DNA of 64,000 nucleotides from a virus. Below, piece by piece: positions 3,175-27,656 of this stretch; the stretch's first letter is position 1, and each line of letters starts with the position of its first letter. The DNA is taken from the IMG/VR virus record IMGVR_UViG_3300048502_000040, positions 23,901-87,900 of that record; one strand, given 5' to 3'. The notes beneath the pieces were generated by a model. That model worked only from the letters and a program-made list of their open reading frames with translations. It searched no databases and was not told the origin of the DNA. The translations under genes and the position numbers were made by a program.

Positions 3175-4319
3175 AGATTGAGCAGTACATCCCGAACCAA
3201 GAAAAGCTCGAAGCGTATGTGAAGTCCGGCCTCGTTACCGCATCGCCGCACCCGCGCCTGCCACTGCTGATCCTGACCTACGGTCGGTCGGCTGTCTACG
3301 AGAACTTGTGGGATGACGTGACGATCAAATGCCGAGGTCTCATCATCGACCGACAGGGCAACGTCATCGCTCGACCGTTTGAGAAATTCTTCAACGTGGC
3401 GACGAGCTACCGTGAAGAGACGTGGTTGGAGAATCTGCCGACCACCAAGCCTGACATTCTGGAGAAGCTGGACGGCTCCCTCGGTATTCTGTATCGCTAC
3501 AACGGCGAGATCGGGATCGCATCCAAGGGATCGTTCAAGTCGGAACACGCGAACTGGGCAACAGGCTACTACCAAGCGCATCACAAAGAAGCGCAGTGGC
3601 CCGAAGGCTATACCCCGGTGTTTGAGATGATTTGCCAAGAGGTACAGACGCATGTCGTCCACTACCGACTGGATGACCATCTGGCGCTGCTGGGAATGGT
3701 CAACATCGAAACGGGCGAGGAGTTGTCCTACGACTCCTTGTGCATATGGGCGGCGGGGAACGGTATCCCGGTGGTCGAGAAGTTCGACAAGTCCGTAGGC
3801 GACGTGCTGGCGGAGGACAGGCCGAACAAAGAGGGATACGTCCTGTCTTGGCCTCGACCCGGCACGACGCCCCTCAAAGTGAAGGTGAAGCACGAGACCT
3901 TCCTCGCCATGCAGAAGATCGCTCACGCGGCAACACCCAAGAGCATACTGGACGCTCTCTGTGAGGGGCAGGACGAGTTGATAGAGACGTGGACGGCCTC
4001 CGCTAACCCTGAGATTGCGTCGTTCGTCCAAGGCCACGCATCGCGCTTCCGTGGCAAGTACATGGAGACCCTTGGTATCGCCGCAGGTATGGCACAGACC
4101 GCCCGGATGCGGTACGGCTCCCGCAAGGATCAGGCCGCATTCTTGACGCAGGACAACGGGCACAAGTTTTACTCTGGCATCGCGTTCGCGTTGCTGGACA
4201 GTAAGGCACCTGAGACCATCCGCAAGGCGGTCTGGAAGGTGACGAGGACGTTACTGGAAGAAGAGTTATCGGATGAACCTGTCGTCGGCATAGACGATGA
4301 GGACAAGGAGGAAGTTTGA
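3171..4319 (+). CDS. RNA ligase, T4 Rnl1-like
   Basis: AAGGAG RBS, ATG 3171. Motifs KCRGLI, RPFEKFFN, EKLDGSLG (motif I), EGYV (motif IV), KVK (motif V). Confidence 0.85.
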   Translation: MKIEQYIPNQEKLEAYVKSGLVTASPHPRLPLLILTYGRSAVYENLWDDVTIKCRGLIIDRQGNVIARPFEKFFNVATSYREETWLENLPTTKPDILEKLDGSLGILYRYNGEIGIASKGSFKSEHANWATGYYQAHHKEAQWPEGYTPVFEMICQEVQTHVVHYRLDDHLALLGMVNIETGEELSYDSLCIWAAGNGIPVVEKFDKSVGDVLAEDRPNKEGYVLSWPRPGTTPLKVKVKHETFLAMQKIAHAATPKSILDALCEGQDELIETWTASANPEIASFVQGHASRFRGKYMETLGIAAGMAQTARMRYGSRKDQAAFLTQDNGHKFYSGIAFALLDSKAPETIRKAVWKVTRTLLEEELSDEPVVGIDDEDKEEV

Positions 4320-4444
4320 ACATTCAAGAAGCACTAGATGTGTTCAAAACCTCTGAAGCTTCTTTGCATGCTTACGCTGCTGGGTTGCTAGATGGCGAAG
4401 GATCAATACAAATAAACCCATCAAAAGGACAAAGTATACGGTAA
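4316..4444 (+). pseudogene. truncated LAGLIDADG endonuclease remnant (42 aa)
   Basis: TTG start after AAGGAGG; translates LNIQEALDVFKTSEASLHAYAAGLLDGEGSIQINPSKGQSIR*. YAAGLLDGEGSI is a LAGLIDADG helix. Confidence 0.75.
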
Positions 4445-4477
4445 AGGAATGATAGGTGAGTTTCCTAAAGGAGTTTT

Positions 4478-4872
4478 ATGAGCATATCTGAACCAAAAAC
4501 CGTTTGCGTTGATTTTGACCTAACGCTGTGTGACTCTGTGTACCCTAAACTTGGCCCTCCAAGGAGGGTGCTTTGGAGGCTATGCACGAACTAAAGCGCA
4601 TGGGATTCTACATTATAGTCTCAAGTTGCCGTTCGTGTAGCTGGAACTGGGATTTGTATTATGGAGAATCCCCACACGTCGCTGCGGTTGACCGCCCTGT
4701 CTTTCAGGACATGGTGAAATGGCTACAAGAATACAATGTTCCGTATGACTTCATCGACGATGGTACTAAGGGAAAGGTCAGTGCCCACTACTACCTTGAT
4801 GATAAAGCTGTCAGAGTAGAGAACAATTGGCCTGAAGTTATAAGGTTTATAAAAGAAAGGGAAAATGTCTGA
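4478..4872 (+). pseudogene. HAD-superfamily phosphatase split by a -1 frameshift near 4549-4570
   Basis: ATG 4478 gives MSISEPKTVCVDFDLTLCDSVYPKLGPP (motif I DxD), and that frame stops at 4594. The continuation EGALEAMHEL..IVSSCR..GK..YYLDDK is in the -1 frame (track ORF 4573-4872). Confidence 0.75.
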
Positions 4873-5575
4873 GATTATAATCACCACTCCCCCGGCCATC
4901 TATGGGGAGGCAGTAGCGGGAGAGTCTGCGAAGCTCCGCAAGGAACTTGAGAGTCTCATCGGCAACATCAACAAGTCACAGTTCGACGTGGCTGAACTGC
5001 TGTACAAGACGAAGCTGAATAAGCCCTACGTCGAGTGGGGCTTCTCTACCTTCCCCGAGTATGTCAAGACGCTCCCCATCAAGGAGAGCAAAGCCCGGTA
5101 CCTGACAACTATTGCCGAGACCTTCGCCGCAGTGGGCATACCCCGTGCGACGTATGAGCCTCTGGGCATCACGCGGTGTCGGTTCATCTCATCCCTCGAC
5201 CCGGCTAAAGTCTGGAAGAACCCGGACACTGGCGCTGAGACCCCCATCACCGAGTTCATCAAAGGTTTTGTGGAGAAGGGAGAAGAGATCAACATGGATT
5301 TGCTGAAGCAGCACATCCGTACCCTGAAGGGCATCTCTGGCGACAGTGACCTGTCGTTCCGCAACCTGAAGTTCCAACGCCTCGTCGCCGAGAACACATG
5401 GGACAAGGCCATCGAACTTGCCAAGCACAACGCTGGCTCTGTCGGCAAAGACTCTGAAGGTATGAGCAAAGACATCTCAGATGAGTACGCCGCCGAGATA
5501 CTGGCGATTGCCTACCTGAACGACCCGACCAACAACGGATCGCTGGTTGACACGGAAGAGGAAGCTAATGAGTAA
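4865..5575 (+). CDS. hypothetical protein
   Basis: 236-aa ORF in operon. Confidence 0.75.
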   Translation: MSEIIITTPPAIYGEAVAGESAKLRKELESLIGNINKSQFDVAELLYKTKLNKPYVEWGFSTFPEYVKTLPIKESKARYLTTIAETFAAVGIPRATYEPLGITRCRFISSLDPAKVWKNPDTGAETPITEFIKGFVEKGEEINMDLLKQHIRTLKGISGDSDLSFRNLKFQRLVAENTWDKAIELAKHNAGSVGKDSEGMSKDISDEYAAEILAIAYLNDPTNNGSLVDTEEEANE

Positions 5576-23151: not shown

Positions 23152-25014
23152 TTATTTTACTGGACATACTCCGCCCTCACATTCCATCCCGTCAAGTTCT
23201 CCCTGACCTATATCTTCCAAGTTCAGGGGTTTGATCTTGCTGGACAACTTGTGGTACTGCTCCTCAGTGATGGCTTCCTTTGGGGCTTGCACGAAGCCAT
23301 GATCGCTATGACACAAAAAGCTAATAGACTTGAGATACTGAAGATTCTCGGACAGCCAAACTTTCAACTTAGGGATATCTTCTCGCTTGTAGTAAACCGT
23401 AACAGATACGGCTTGATCTGCCCAATGTTTCTGAGCCATCTTGAGAACGTCAAGCTGTTTCCACGTATCCCACTGCTCATCCGCTACTGGCTGCCCGGCT
23501 GGGGTCTCGATGTAGAAGTCCGCAACTAAAGTCTGAGGATCAATACCTCCTCCAAACTTCTGAACAGGCTCTACATAATGCCCGGCTTCCCTCAGCTTAG
23601 GCACGAGCGCGTCATTGGATGCGAACCTAACCCTCTGAATGAAGTGCCTGCTGTAGGCTGCGTGGATACCCTCGTAGCCCATGCAGTCAAGAACTTTAGA
23701 CAGGGTTCCAGACGGCTTCACTACTGTAGTCCGCTTGCTCTTAGGTATTCCTAGCTCCTTGCTGTACCGTTCGTCCTCATCTTGGATAGCAGCGTAGGCT
23801 TGGTCTAAAACTTCCGGTACGAATAGAGGCGATGCCAAGCACCCGGTTATACTTGTGCCTGTACGTCTGTTTCTCTGGATCACATCCTGTGATACCTTAT
23901 GGTGGTAATGCTCCATCGTCACACGCTTGGCGTAACGGTGCATAAGTCGGGCGGTATCAAAGAACTCTTGAGGACTTTCAAGATTACATAGAGCAATCTC
24001 AGTCAGGTTACAAGGCTCTCCGTTTTCTAAAGTTGCCTCGGCGCACGGGTTCACTCCGATAGCATTGTCGGGCTTCATCTCCCCCATGCGTCCGTACTTT
24101 TGCATGTTGGATCGGTTCACTAACCCGAAAGGTTCTCCCTGTTCATAAGTCTTCCAAAACAGGGGATGAAGGTCTTCTGTATCGTCGCACACAACACTAT
24201 AGTTAGCGCAACTTCTGTGCGAAGGCAGTACACCTAAATCCCATCTCTTAGCCCGAAGATAATCCTTATCCCAAGCATCACCTAGAATGATGATAGCCGA
24301 GCGTCGGACGTTTCCAGCGACAACCATTTCCCCAGTGGCAGTAATAATGTCCGCAGCATCTAAGGTGCGCACATGCCTTCCTTCTCGGTTATTTAGAATT
24401 GCACACAGGTTGGAAACGAATTTTATAAGCGGGATAGGACCAGACGCAGTACCTCCAAAACCAACTATGGATTCCCCGTAACCGCGTACGCAAACCGTCG
24501 AGTAACTGAATGACTTTCCAGTAACAAAGAAGCTCTCTAGTACACGCCGAGTTAGTTCACACCATCCCTCTCGACTGTCCGGTACGATGAAGTCAGCGTC
24601 TTTAGTCCCTTTATGGACAATGACGACATCCTTCTTGACCCTTGGAAGCTTGCTGGTGAAACGGTGCTCAACGCTTAGACCCACGCCGCCTCCGAGCATA
24701 AGAAGGTCTTGTGCTATTACGAAATTGTTCCAATCATCTGCGGTAAAGAACCAACAGTTGTTTAGAGCCGCCCCGCCAATTTTAGAATGAGAGGGTGAGC
24801 CGGACATCCATATACCACGTCCCGCTGCACACGCCTTGCGATCTTGTCCTAACCGTATAAGAGCCTTGATCTCTGACTCAGGTACGTTCTTTCCTTTTAC
24901 GTTGCCCATTACAACACGTTCGATGGTTTGATCCCAATTCTCTAAGAACCCGTTATCTTGCCTGTTATACGTTCTACGGGTTACCACGCGGGCAAGGTTG
25001 CTCCAATCTTTCAC
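23152..25014 (-). CDS. nrdJ: class II (B12-dependent) ribonucleoside-triphosphate reductase
   Basis: ALNNCWF, GNVRRSA, NPCAE, EPCNLTEI, VKPSGTLS, C-terminal CEGGVCPVK. Confidence 0.93.
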   Translation of the reverse strand: MKDWSNLARVVTRRTYNRQDNGFLENWDQTIERVVMGNVKGKNVPESEIKALIRLGQDRKACAAGRGIWMSGSPSHSKIGGAALNNCWFFTADDWNNFVIAQDLLMLGGGVGLSVEHRFTSKLPRVKKDVVIVHKGTKDADFIVPDSREGWCELTRRVLESFFVTGKSFSYSTVCVRGYGESIVGFGGTASGPIPLIKFVSNLCAILNNREGRHVRTLDAADIITATGEMVVAGNVRRSAIIILGDAWDKDYLRAKRWDLGVLPSHRSCANYSVVCDDTEDLHPLFWKTYEQGEPFGLVNRSNMQKYGRMGEMKPDNAIGVNPCAEATLENGEPCNLTEIALCNLESPQEFFDTARLMHRYAKRVTMEHYHHKVSQDVIQRNRRTGTSITGCLASPLFVPEVLDQAYAAIQDEDERYSKELGIPKSKRTTVVKPSGTLSKVLDCMGYEGIHAAYSRHFIQRVRFASNDALVPKLREAGHYVEPVQKFGGGIDPQTLVADFYIETPAGQPVADEQWDTWKQLDVLKMAQKHWADQAVSVTVYYKREDIPKLKVWLSENLQYLKSISFLCHSDHGFVQAPKEAITEEQYHKLSSKIKPLNLEDIGQGELDGMECEGGVCPVK

Positions 25015-25047: not shown

Positions 25048-25716
25048 TCATTCTGCTCTCTTTCTTACCTTGCTTCTTAGTTCTTTTAGCCTCTCTACGA
25101 AGCGTGTACCTCGTAGGCTGTAAAAGAACCTGTACTTGGGCTTTCGAGGTATGCGTTTTATGTCGGACTCATTCAATCCCAGTGCTCTCATACGGTCTGC
25201 CGTTTGGTTGTATCTGGCAAACTTGTGATCCCCCAAGTAGTAATCAACTCTGGGAGATTTGCGCTCTTCATCCTGCATTCCGTCAGGCGACCAGTTGCCT
25301 GCTTTGTAGATAGTACCGCTGTGTCCCATACTGGGGTCTGCGAAGCTAACTATACCTTCGACGTGCGGAAACTGCTTCTTCACTAGCATAATGGTTTTGG
25401 CAACAAACCAAGTCTCCGAGTTCTTTGGCATCTCGTCCAGCAACCATAACCTCGCCAACTCCCAACAAACACACCCATACCGTTTATTTATCTGGAGAGA
25501 TGGCATGGAGTAGATGCAGGTTCCTACACATTCTTCTCCACGAAACAGACCGAAAACGCAAAGAACCACCCCCGGCCATTTGCGGAGATAATGCTCTTTC
25601 ACCATCCAGTCCACTTGCTCACGGGATACTTGGCGAACTTGTAGAGTATTGAATTGGAGCGGAGGAGTCGGGTTCGAACCGCTACCGTCAGCCGGGATAG
25701 GCTGCTGTACTACCAT
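25048..25716 (-). CDS. mom: Mom-like DNA adenine modification enzyme (GNAT-related); first 21 codons overlap the tRNA
   Basis: HYL..., ELARLWL, NSETWF, SFADPSMGHSGTIYKAGNW. Start AUG lies in the tRNA D-loop with GGAGG 7 nt upstream. Confidence 0.8.
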   Translation of the reverse strand: MVVQQPIPADGSGSNPTPPLQFNTLQVRQVSREQVDWMVKEHYLRKWPGVVLCVFGLFRGEECVGTCIYSMPSLQINKRYGCVCWELARLWLLDEMPKNSETWFVAKTIMLVKKQFPHVEGIVSFADPSMGHSGTIYKAGNWSPDGMQDEERKSPRVDYYLGDHKFARYNQTADRMRALGLNESDIKRIPRKPKYRFFYSLRGTRFVERLKELRSKVRKRAE

Positions 25717-25730
25717 TGTACGACCTCCGC
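25655..25730 (-). tRNA. non-canonical tRNA-Gly-like (76 nt)
   Basis: GCGGAGG UC GUAC AAUGGUA GUAC A GCAGC CUAUCCCG GCUGA CGGU AGCGG UUCGAAC CCGACU CCUCCGC U CCA. Perfect 7-bp acceptor with G1-C72, C2-G71, G3-C70, U73 and encoded CCA; 8-nt anticodon loop containing UCC/CCC; bulged A in T-stem. Confidence 0.85.
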
Positions 25731-25736
25731 AAGTCT

Positions 25737-25766
25737 ATTATAACACATGCCGAACGAGAATGGCAA
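25737..25766 (-). promoter_or_regulatory. strong extended -10 sigma70 promoter for tRNA/mom
   Basis: TTGCCA-18 nt-(TG-n-)TATAAT, ending 7 nt before tRNA G1; the -10 overlaps the TAA of the upstream gene. Confidence 0.8.
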
Positions 25767-26568
25767 CTGCGCCACCGAGTCCCACCCCTACCCCGTACAG
25801 GAAGCTCTTGAGCTTTCCTTTACGGGCTGATGCTTTTTCCGCAGTCAGTTCTTTCGCGTCCGCTGTCTTCTGATCCGTGAGTTCGGTTCCCAGTCCGTCG
25901 ATCTGCTGGGCCTGATCCGTAATCACGGTGTTTGCCTTTGCGAGTTCCGCTTGGCCGTTACTGACTTGTGTTTGTGCGTCGGCGAGATTCTGCTTGAGCA
26001 CCGGCACCTGTTCAAGAGCTACCACCGTGCCGATAGCCGCAGCAGGGTCTACCGTTATCCCTGCGGTCGTGGCCGTGAGATCGCCGGGCTGTGCGTCGAT
26101 GAGGGATGCCCATCGGTTGCCGAGATCGGGCATCGGCAGAGTCTTGTCGGTAGCCTGCTGCTGTTGGAGGACAATCGTGCGGCTGGCGCTGGCCGCAACA
26201 AGCTGGGCATTCTGCTGAGACAACGCCGCAACAGTTGCCTTGTAGCTAGTAGCGTCCTGCTGGGCCTGCTGTGCCAGCGCCACGTCCTTGTCATGCTGCA
26301 CAACGAGTGTCTGGGCCGCGATGTTGGCCTGTTGCTTGTCACGATCCGCTACGACACTTAGATACTTGAAGCTGCCGAGTAACATGGCCAAGCTAATTAT
26401 CAGGGCCAAGATAATGCGCTCGTGAACCTTTAGCCACGACTCTGCCTTGGTCACGTCAGCCTTCGCTGTTGTCTCAATATTTTGAAACCCTTGGATTATA
26501 TTTGTTTGTGCTGTCTTCAAACCGGACGCAGCGGCTATCGTAGTTGTCGGTGTGGCTGTGGCGCTCAT
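25738..26568 (-). CDS. membrane-anchored coiled-coil protein, spanin(Rz)-like
   Basis: AAGGAG RBS, ATG 26568; TM segment IILALIISLAMLLGSF, Q/A-rich coiled coil, hydrophobic C-terminus. Confidence 0.55.
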   Translation of the reverse strand: MSATATPTTTIAAASGLKTAQTNIIQGFQNIETTAKADVTKAESWLKVHERIILALIISLAMLLGSFKYLSVVADRDKQQANIAAQTLVVQHDKDVALAQQAQQDATSYKATVAALSQQNAQLVAASASRTIVLQQQQATDKTLPMPDLGNRWASLIDAQPGDLTATTAGITVDPAAAIGTVVALEQVPVLKQNLADAQTQVSNGQAELAKANTVITDQAQQIDGLGTELTDQKTADAKELTAEKASARKGKLKSFLYGVGVGLGGAVAILVRHVL

Positions 26569-26886: not shown

Positions 26887-27294
26887 TTACTCCACTTTGT
26901 ACTCGGAACAGACGTACTTGATGCTCCGACCGACGCGCTCGTTGAATGCGAGGATCGCTTTGTTGCCGGGCTTATGATAGCCCATGATGTATTTTACCCC
27001 ACGCTTGCGGGCCTCGTCAACTAACCGCTCCCAGAGCGCCGCGTAGTAACCCTTCTTGCGGTACTCCTTCGAGACGTAGCCCATGTTGACCACGAACTTG
27101 CTCTCTTCCTGATAGAACGAGCAAACGCCTACAACGCGCTTCAACCTGTTCTGGATGAAGAACGCTTCCTCATCGCCGGACGCTGGGGCATCCATCGCTT
27201 CGATGTTCCCTGCTTTGCGCAGCGTCACGTAGGCGTCGATGATGTACGGCAGCACCGGGGTGCCGTGAATCCTTTGCACGTACTCAATCTTCAT
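26887..27294 (-). CDS. GNAT acetyltransferase
   Basis: YVSKEYRKKGYYAAL (R..G motif A), GNKAILAFNERVG. Confidence 0.8.
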   Translation of the reverse strand: MKIEYVQRIHGTPVLPYIIDAYVTLRKAGNIEAMDAPASGDEEAFFIQNRLKRVVGVCSFYQEESKFVVNMGYVSKEYRKKGYYAALWERLVDEARKRGVKYIMGYHKPGNKAILAFNERVGRSIKYVCSEYKVE

Positions 27295-27656
27295 ACATCT
27301 CCTAGCTTGGCCGGATCGAACGACACGGCTTCTGCTTCGTGTTCCTCAAACTGTTGGCGCTCGTACTCTTCCTTCCGCCGCATGTATTGCGCCTGCGCCG
27401 CACTCACATAGCCGTGGGCCGTGTGGTCTATGACTTCAAGGTTTGTCCAGTGGCAGTCGAGCTTGTTCTGATTCTTATGGTTTACGTCCTCTGTTGGCAG
27501 GAGGTCGCGCTTGAGCATAGCTTGTGCGACGAGTGTGTGGACGCGTACGCCAGTGAACGGGCCTGCGCTGATGCGCGGGTAGCCTTTCTCATCGACGTAC
27601 GTCCCAAACTGTTGACCGTCCTTACAGACGAACTTTCCACTAGCGTCTCGCGGCAT
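27291..27656 (-). CDS. HNH endonuclease (I-HmuI/HNH_3-like)
   Basis: GY...RVHTLVA..L..EDVNHKNQNKLD..WTNLEV. Confidence 0.8.
   Translation of the reverse strand: MPRDASGKFVCKDGQQFGTYVDEKGYPRISAGPFTGVRVHTLVAQAMLKRDLLPTEDVNHKNQNKLDCHWTNLEVIDHTAHGYVSAAQAQYMRRKEEYERQQFEEHEAEAVSFDPAKLGDV

Follow-up and report, generated by a model that had tools for sequence, protein, structure and literature searches.

How does translation of a phage mom gene begin when a tRNA-Gly-like RNA lies across its 5' end on the same strand? The window (the whole stretch of DNA analysed here, 64,000 nucleotides) covers bases 23901 to 87900 of a 98.5-kb IMG/VR virus record that represents a phage. DNA of the locus was matched in peat metagenome runs, and a blastn search of GenBank phages with the locus gave no match. 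A sequence-only reading had proposed that the acceptor stem of the RNA provides the Shine-Dalgarno (SD) sequence of mom and the D-loop its start codon. A GGAGG and an in-frame ATG in one sequence could be coincidence; comparison with relatives, described below, points to more than chance. Taken as a whole, the explanation that we consider best, with a probability of roughly 0.6, is that the RNA and mom would be made as one fused transcript, that Mom would be started in the D-loop, and that the RNA would be functional in its own right, likely as a private glycyl donor. The features of the locus are collected in Table 1.

Table 1. Features of the tRNA-like RNA and the mom gene, in window coordinates.
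Feature	Position	Strand	Basis or remark
tRNA-Gly-like RNA, 76 nt, cloverleaf	25655..25730	minus	sequence, Rfam, folding, family covariation
Enlarged anticodon loop, 8 nt, CUAUCCCG; holds UCC, the Gly anticodon letters	25693..25700	minus	
Extra A, bulged from the T-stem 3' strand (CCG-A-CU)	25668..25668	minus	
Acceptor 3' strand CCUCCGC, partner of GGAGG; would mask GGAGG once transcribed	25659..25665	minus	folding
GGAGG, proposed SD, tRNA-like nt 3-7, acceptor 5' strand	25724..25728	minus	7 nt before ATG
ATG in D-loop, tRNA-like nt 15-17, proposed Mom start codon	25714..25716	minus	
Mom codons 1-21, putative passenger peptide, tRNA-like nt 15-76 plus one base	25654..25716	minus	
Mom core, F22 to stop codon, GNAT-fold DNA adenine modifier	25048..25653	minus	Pfam, PHROG, PDB, model
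Sigma-70-type promoter, TTGCCA-18 nt-TATAAT, TG before -10, 11/12 matches	25737..25766	minus	

The acceptor stem of the RNA (GCGGAGG/CCUCCGC) is followed by U73 and an encoded CCA, its D-loop (AAUGGUA) contains the canonical GG, and its T-loop (UUCGAAC) is canonical. Two traits, both family-wide, depart from a canonical tRNA: the anticodon loop has 8 nt, or 6 if its end C and G pair, instead of 7, and the T stem is not a regular 5-bp helix. The family consensus has a 6-nt anticodon loop, N-W-U-C-C-N, with an extra closing pair. An extra T-stem base at the position equivalent to 25668 was found in every family member seen, untranslated copies included, and is a G in copies of the L006 type. The RNA scored 28.7 bits against Rfam RF00005, below the gathering score of 29. 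ARAGORN called no tRNA in the window and returned "tRNA-???" with a 4-base anticodon, atcc, for the relative L006; the single-sequence folding energy of the RNA was unexceptional (z = -1.1). We rejected a decaying pseudogene or an attachment-site remnant on the grounds of strong covariation (see below), complete cloverleaves and the fixed junction with Mom. Three embedded copies in other contigs (L326:77-153, L327:113-189 and L336:1121-1200) are without an encoded CCA, with TTTG or TTTCA after the acceptor stem, so that CCA addition would be needed if they are functional. Outside the window, the phage has four canonical tRNA genes (G000:C1 88750-90233 and 3306-3376), for Pro-TGG, Ala-TGC, Asn-GTT and Leu-GAG, and no canonical tRNA-Gly was present among the phage's tRNA genes. 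In another contig, ARAGORN made a putative permuted tmRNA-like call (L004:525-939).

The protein encoded behind the RNA matched the Pfam Mom profile PF25680 with 107.8 bits (gathering threshold, 27.1; E = 7.4e-31), PHROG 1384 with E = 2e-34, and the structure of Mu Mom (PDB 8bv8) with E = 4e-11. Among Mu Mom residues with an essential or important role, H58, Y59, R111, D149 and Y159 are, in the alignment to 8bv8, kept as H42, Y43, R89, D127 and Y137, while S124 lies opposite T102 and R151 opposite S129; here the chain index was taken as the native number minus 9, as we inferred from the delta-10 S124A construct. Mu Mom moves glycine from Gly-tRNAGly to the N6 of adenine in double-stranded DNA, after which the attached glycyl group undergoes a rearrangement on the base (Silva et al. 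2026, PMC13219725). Within the family, this transfer is known from Mu Mom alone. The same enzyme rejects glycine on tRNA-Ala and tolerates a 10-residue N-terminal truncation (PMC13219725). As for the neighbourhood, the region upstream of mom (26887-27656, minus strand) holds ORFs for a GNAT acetyltransferase-like protein (135 aa) and an HNH endonuclease (121 aa), and a class II (B12-dependent) ribonucleotide reductase of 620 aa follows mom (23152-25014).

To locate the N terminus of the enzyme, we compared loci with and without the RNA. A search with an alignment of one Mom subfamily, which is free of DNA-pattern bias, yielded 31 loci. Eighteen of these carry the embedded RNA at the identical junction; the other 13 are without it and have N termini of the form M-x(1-4)-F, in which F is the Phe found after the CCA in the embedded cases. 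The RNA-less relatives start 2 to 5 codons ahead of the F22 equivalent. Because RNA-less relatives begin at this Phe, we place the start of the Mom core at F22, and the tRNA-encoded N-terminal peptide is, judging from these comparisons, dispensable. AlphaFold gave pLDDT values below 50 at residues 1-17 and of at least 92 from residue 21, and the modelled fold appears to begin at about residue 20. Since the core starts at F22, the start codon in the window should lie upstream of F22, i.e., inside the RNA.

The D-loop ATG is the first start codon past an in-frame TAG lying 21 nt upstream. From this ATG (25716) a frame of 222 codons is open to the stop codon at 25050..25048, and its translation reads MVVQQPIPADGSGSNPTPPLQ, then F22 onwards. 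No in-frame ATG, GTG or TTG occurs in the window ORF between codon 1 and GTG35 (25614), which leaves 13 codons past the CCA without any start codon. The computed duplex between the 16S rRNA 3' end and the SD of the D-loop ATG was -10.7 kcal/mol, compared with -3.9 to -4.2 kcal/mol at GTG35, ATG38 and GTG39. GGAGG-7 nt-ATG thus has the geometry of an SD-led start, with a spacer inside the usual range of 5 to 9 nt and with conservation in relatives, and use by the ribosome is predicted; the same geometry recurs in L017, L006, L114 and others. All statements about the sequence in the sequence-only reading held at this point, namely that GGAGG (nt 3-7) sits 7 nt ahead of the ATG, that the frame stays open through the RNA into the enzyme, and that no SD-equipped start lies between the CCA and the first conserved HYL motif. 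In the window, the D-loop ATG with the acceptor-strand GGAGG appears to be the only credible start of Mom.

It could be argued that the RNA is just an ordinary, odd or decaying tRNA gene upstream of mom, that the long ORF is an artefact of gene calling, and that Mom starts at GTG35 or ATG38. An ATG at this place calls for no particular cause, given that AAUGG is frequent in the D-loops of tRNA-Gly, and in L017 a gene caller did pick a downstream GTG. The truncation that Mu Mom tolerates also speaks for this possibility, which we nevertheless regard as very unlikely. We rejected GTG35, ATG38 and GTG39 as starts: their SDs are weak, they would truncate the Pfam-aligned region, which begins at residue 25 and hence upstream of GTG35, and GTG35 is a GTA in L017. 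The starts of RNA-less relatives just ahead of the conserved Phe likewise argue against it.

Stops or indels that break the frame within the RNA of homologs had been named in the sequence-only reading as refuting it; the survey of relatives did not refute it in this way. Viral and metagenome contigs were scanned with DNA patterns from the RNA 3' end, and Mom was sought in the three downstream frames. The copies obtained are related by descent, so that counts do not equal independent events, and most were found by a pattern that fixes the 3' acceptor strand, to which the invariance of nt 67-76 is partly due. The survey comprised 68 distinct same-strand pairs of a tRNA-like RNA followed by Mom. 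In 65 of them the phase is the same, with C72-U73-C74 forming a codon, and in 64 the open frame passes through the RNA, reaching back at least as far as the D-loop. Within the final 62 nt, the Mom frame was stop-free in 62 of 63 embedded copies, compared with 14 and 42 of 63 for the other two frames. When columns were shuffled with their composition and base pairs kept, 7.2 ± 1.9 of 43 copies were expected to contain a stop; none did, and a count this low was reached in 0 of 2,000 shuffles. Matches of the pattern outside Mom loci were tried as a baseline for open frames and dropped, since most were not tRNAs.

Starts were conserved along with the frame. About 46 of the 63 embedded copies have an in-frame start in the D-loop, listed as ATG (39), GTG (9) and TTG (2), and NTG triplets in the D-loop fall in the Mom frame in 46 of 47 copies, including copies of 73, 74 and 77 nt. 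About 16 copies without a D-loop start have an in-frame ATG a few bases upstream of nt 1 instead, often behind a good SD, so that the whole RNA would be translated. In 41 of 64 loci there is no in-frame start between the CCA and the Mom core. Three relatives were identified by Mom protein similarity. L017, whose Mom is 80% identical, shares with the window the RNA, the GGAGG-7 nt-ATG and the open frame; its stems show compensatory changes and only about half of the encoded peptide is conserved. In L006 (30% identical), GGAGG-7 nt-GTG occupies the same place and phase. L018 (62% identical) has a degraded copy upstream, cut off from mom by a stop codon and by mom's own SD and ATG.

Phase, open frame and in-frame starts are thus conserved across very divergent Moms, which, together with the loci that have no start behind the CCA, argues further against an ordinary tRNA gene upstream of mom. 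On this comparative evidence, translation through the tRNA-like RNA is highly probable, as the dual-coding reading had proposed. That SD-like acceptor strands go together with D-loop starts is no more than suggestive, given few independent cases in a pattern-biased sample. Another way to obtain Mom would be to excise the RNA from every transcript and to translate only a processed or non-canonical downstream message, leaderless or with a non-AUG start near the CCA. Four loci (L102, L221, L249 and L313) have an ATG as the first codon after CTC-CAA, which suits a leaderless message after 3' cleavage. We consider this scheme the least probable of all those weighed here: the window has no start codon within 13 codons of the CCA, the scheme would not account for a frame free of stops along the entire RNA, and the loci with an upstream SD and ATG would make no sense.

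The RNA is absent from most close relatives of the window Mom: at 80 Mom loci from the window's own protein alignment, a covariance model detected no adjacent tRNA-like RNA (0/80), and the window and L017 sit within a 56-sequence clade otherwise without it. In a tree of 141 Mom sequences, nearly every deep clade includes embedded copies, and the RNA-less ones fall into nested groups; at least 7 changes of state are forced, with biased sampling and an arbitrary root. That the RNA is ancestral in the Mom family and was lost repeatedly is a lead, not a result. The N termini of two relatives (P0004 and P0062) look tRNA-derived, and P0062 has the full tRNA-derived peptide together with an FDARWR motif. 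RNA-less Moms (L024, L037, L055; proteins P0016, P0018, P0034 and P0062) often begin MKP(T/S/D)GP(V/T)FD, and at the DNA level one such start, AAG CCG ACC GGA CCA GTA TTC GAC, resembles the translated T-stem/acceptor 3' half, ATT CCG ACC TCT CCG CTC CAA TTC GAC. Such N termini may be remnants of a tRNA-like RNA since lost, or the likeness may be due to chance.

We next considered the RNA as a molecule of its own. Across 31 family members, in an alignment that was fitted to the model, 97.2% of cells were paired and 11 pairs changed on both sides; all 8 pairs of the D and anticodon stems did so. None of 500 shuffles reached the observed values, and slid controls were 47 to 56% paired. This strong covariation counts against a decaying tRNA gene as well. 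The identity set of bacterial tRNA-Gly comprises G1-C72, C2-G71, G3-C70, U73, C35 and C36, and all of these glycyl-tRNA synthetase (GlyRS) letters are present in the window RNA. Every copy in the protein-based sample retains pairs 1-3, while pairs 4-7 covary; U73 and C35-C36 occur in nearly all of them.

The RNA also occurs detached from the coding sequence. In L145:7733-8576 (also in L251 and L106), a 74-nt family member stands alone, with a TTGACA-17-TATAAT promoter and an intrinsic terminator right after the CCA, convergent to a gene for a 250-aa Mom (Pfam E = 4e-54) with a normal, not tRNA-derived, N terminus. In L018, L235, L253 and L289, the RNA lies upstream of and apart from Mom. The proposal that two extra nucleotides set the frame did not survive this comparison, as the bulged T stem, at least, is also found in the untranslated stand-alone L145 copy and the separated L018 copy. 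Since the T-stem extra base and the non-canonical anticodon loop are both present in L145, they are traits of the RNA, not frame-setting devices. Identity letters, elbow, CCA, covariation and stand-alone copies together favour a released, chargeable, non-decoding RNA. That it serves as a private glycyl donor seems, from the same features, somewhat more probable than the contrary. Such a donor would not be required by the enzyme family, because most Mom genes are without the RNA (0/80) and Mu Mom accepts every host tRNA-Gly isoacceptor. As a separate observation, a DruA-family gene (PF14236, E = 5e-14; L018:351-1169) on the same contig as the L018 Mom gene begins inside a reduced tRNA-like remnant, in which other sequence has taken the place of the D and anticodon arms while the acceptor strands, the bulged T arm and the CCA remain. 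It starts at GGAGGGAG-ATG, and its product reads ...GGAKPTPPLQL, in the same phase as in the Mom cases.

The promoter in the window would place the RNA at the very front of the message. Because its -10 element ends 6 nt ahead of nt 1, the predicted transcript start is at or beside G1, and a transcript begun at G1 would have just 2 nt ahead of the SD. Among evaluable loci, a promoter whose -10 ends 6 to 8 nt before G1 was found in 11 of 29 that start in the D-loop and in 0 of 8 others. Folding of the growing transcript gave an unpaired probability of 0.6 to 0.8 for the SD at lengths of 30 to 60 nt and of 0.00 at 72 nt or more; the SD was fully paired once nt 66-72 existed, and the AUG remained in a loop throughout. 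The proposal that a folded cloverleaf hides the SD agrees with this calculation. In a peat metatranscriptome run, one 151-nt contig (25579-25729) runs across the CCA junction and stops 1 nt short of G1, and a second one (25731-25881) leaves a 1-nt gap at 25730, the predicted 5' end of the RNA. The abutting contigs fit an RNA whose 5' end is G1 and which runs uncut into mom. As two read-length contigs, which cannot prove RNA ends, they could meet at 25730 through a transcription start, an RNase P cut, one read pair, DNA carry-over or a break in the assembly graph.

Several of these results would also suit a fold that acts only in cis, as a translational operator of mom that hides the SD or as a tRNA mimic bound by Mom or GlyRS, and that is neither set free nor charged at any time. 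In the completed cloverleaf no part of the SD is left unpaired, and the RNA contig passes the CCA junction uncut. Translation of Mu mom is controlled by a start-site hairpin that the Com protein opens, and the thrS leader is bound by ThrRS as a tRNA mimic. In L248:4013-5262, each of two tandem Moms has its own copy: an RNA at 4013-4085 is followed by Mom at 4027-4647, and an RNA at 4638-4709, overlapping the stop of the first Mom, by a diverged second Mom at 4651-5262 (Pfam Mom E = 1e-28). Both start at the ATG in their own D-loop. One RNA copy per tandem Mom fits a cis role at least as well as a shared donor. We nonetheless think a purely cis-acting fold unlikely. About 16 lineages keep the RNA intact although their SD and ATG are located outside it, so that hiding the SD cannot be its only role. 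The convergent L145 gene with its own promoter and terminator, and the copies set apart from Mom in L018, L235, L253 and L289, also count against it. Moreover, the full GlyRS identity set, the elbow and the CCA are kept while pairs 4-7 covary, which exceeds the needs of an SD-hiding hairpin.

In the explanation that we favour, the promoter would start transcription at about nt 1 and give one transcript in which the tRNA-like RNA is fused in frame to mom. Mom would be translated from the D-loop AUG with the GGAGG of the acceptor 5' strand as ribosome-binding site, and the tRNA-like body would encode a disordered, dispensable N-terminal extension of 21 residues. The RNA would at the same time be a conserved functional molecule, with GlyRS identity letters, elbow and CCA, and with a non-decoding anticodon loop and a bulged T stem. 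Most likely it would be released from some transcripts, charged by the host GlyRS, and used as Mom's private glycyl donor outside protein synthesis. A bifunctional transcript, in which one 76-nt stretch doubles as a non-decoding glycyl carrier for DNA hypermodification and as the ribosome-binding site, start codon and opening 21 codons of the enzyme using it, is a more tentative proposal that we would put below even odds. Much the same, or marginally better, standing can be given to the idea that each transcript is committed to either a tRNA or an mRNA fate. A ribosome that loads on the acceptor-strand SD before nt 66-72 emerge would make the transcript an mRNA; if the cloverleaf closes and is trimmed at the CCA, a donor tRNA and a dead message would result.

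Parts of this arrangement have counterparts elsewhere. A conserved 76-bp tRNA-Gly-like "pseudo-tRNA" was reported in the first 150 bp of a mom homolog in the ssrA genomic islands of Dehalococcoides, in a descriptive account that proposed no function for it (McMurdie et al. 2011, PMC3146451). Compared by description, it resembles the window RNA in being a cloverleaf, about 76 nt long, that lies within the 5' end of a Mom ORF; it differs in that it lies in bacterial islands, within the first 150 bp of the ORF, whereas the window locus belongs to a phage and has a promoter abutting nt 1, an acceptor strand as putative SD and a putative start codon in the D-loop (PMC3146451). Phage Mu has an enzyme of the same family (PDB 8BV8), and there, too, RNA structure over the start region limits translation. 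Mu, however, uses host tRNA-Gly, has no tRNA-like RNA in or beside mom, relies on a hairpin opened by Com, and has S124 where the window Mom has Thr. The study of Mu Mom leaves tRNA genes at mom loci unmentioned (PMC13219725).

Outside the Mom family, staphylococci have non-proteinogenic tRNA-Gly isoacceptors that are used by FemXAB. These can be charged by GlyRS, are altered as expected to avoid decoding, and feed a GNAT-fold aminoacyl-transferase; for the window RNA, charging is predicted. They are free-standing cellular genes with normal 7-nt anticodon loops, whereas the window RNA has a 6- or 8-nt loop and a bulged T stem and would be translated within the ORF of its presumed user. In the tRNA-tufB operon and the thrS operator of E. 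coli, a tRNA or its mimic is transcribed together with a protein gene to which it is linked in function, but lies outside the coding sequence and supplies neither SD nor start codon. That Mom is a GNAT enzyme modifying DNA via charged tRNA-Gly was shown only between 2023 and 2026. In the literature searched for a link between Mom and an embedded or private tRNA, the 2011 descriptive report (PMC3146451) was the only hit, and the geometry of a promoter at nt 1, an acceptor-strand SD and a D-loop AUG, its breadth, and its link to tRNA-dependent Mom chemistry were not found. The general phenomenon was thus published in 2011, and the initiation geometry appears to be undescribed.

For annotation, these loci mean that gene callers truncate such mom genes or miss the RNA, and that tRNA finders skip the RNA or label it a pseudo-tRNA. 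The locus would provide a rare example from nature of a structured RNA that has tRNA identity and serves as translation-initiation region and coding sequence at once; it also offers a model, open to direct tests, in which ribosome loading and RNA folding compete kinetically. If true, the either-or commitment of transcripts would set the ratio of enzyme to donor. The finding of a tRNA-Gly look-alike, conserved and non-decoding, fused to many mom genes suggests that a phage is able to bring a donor of its own.
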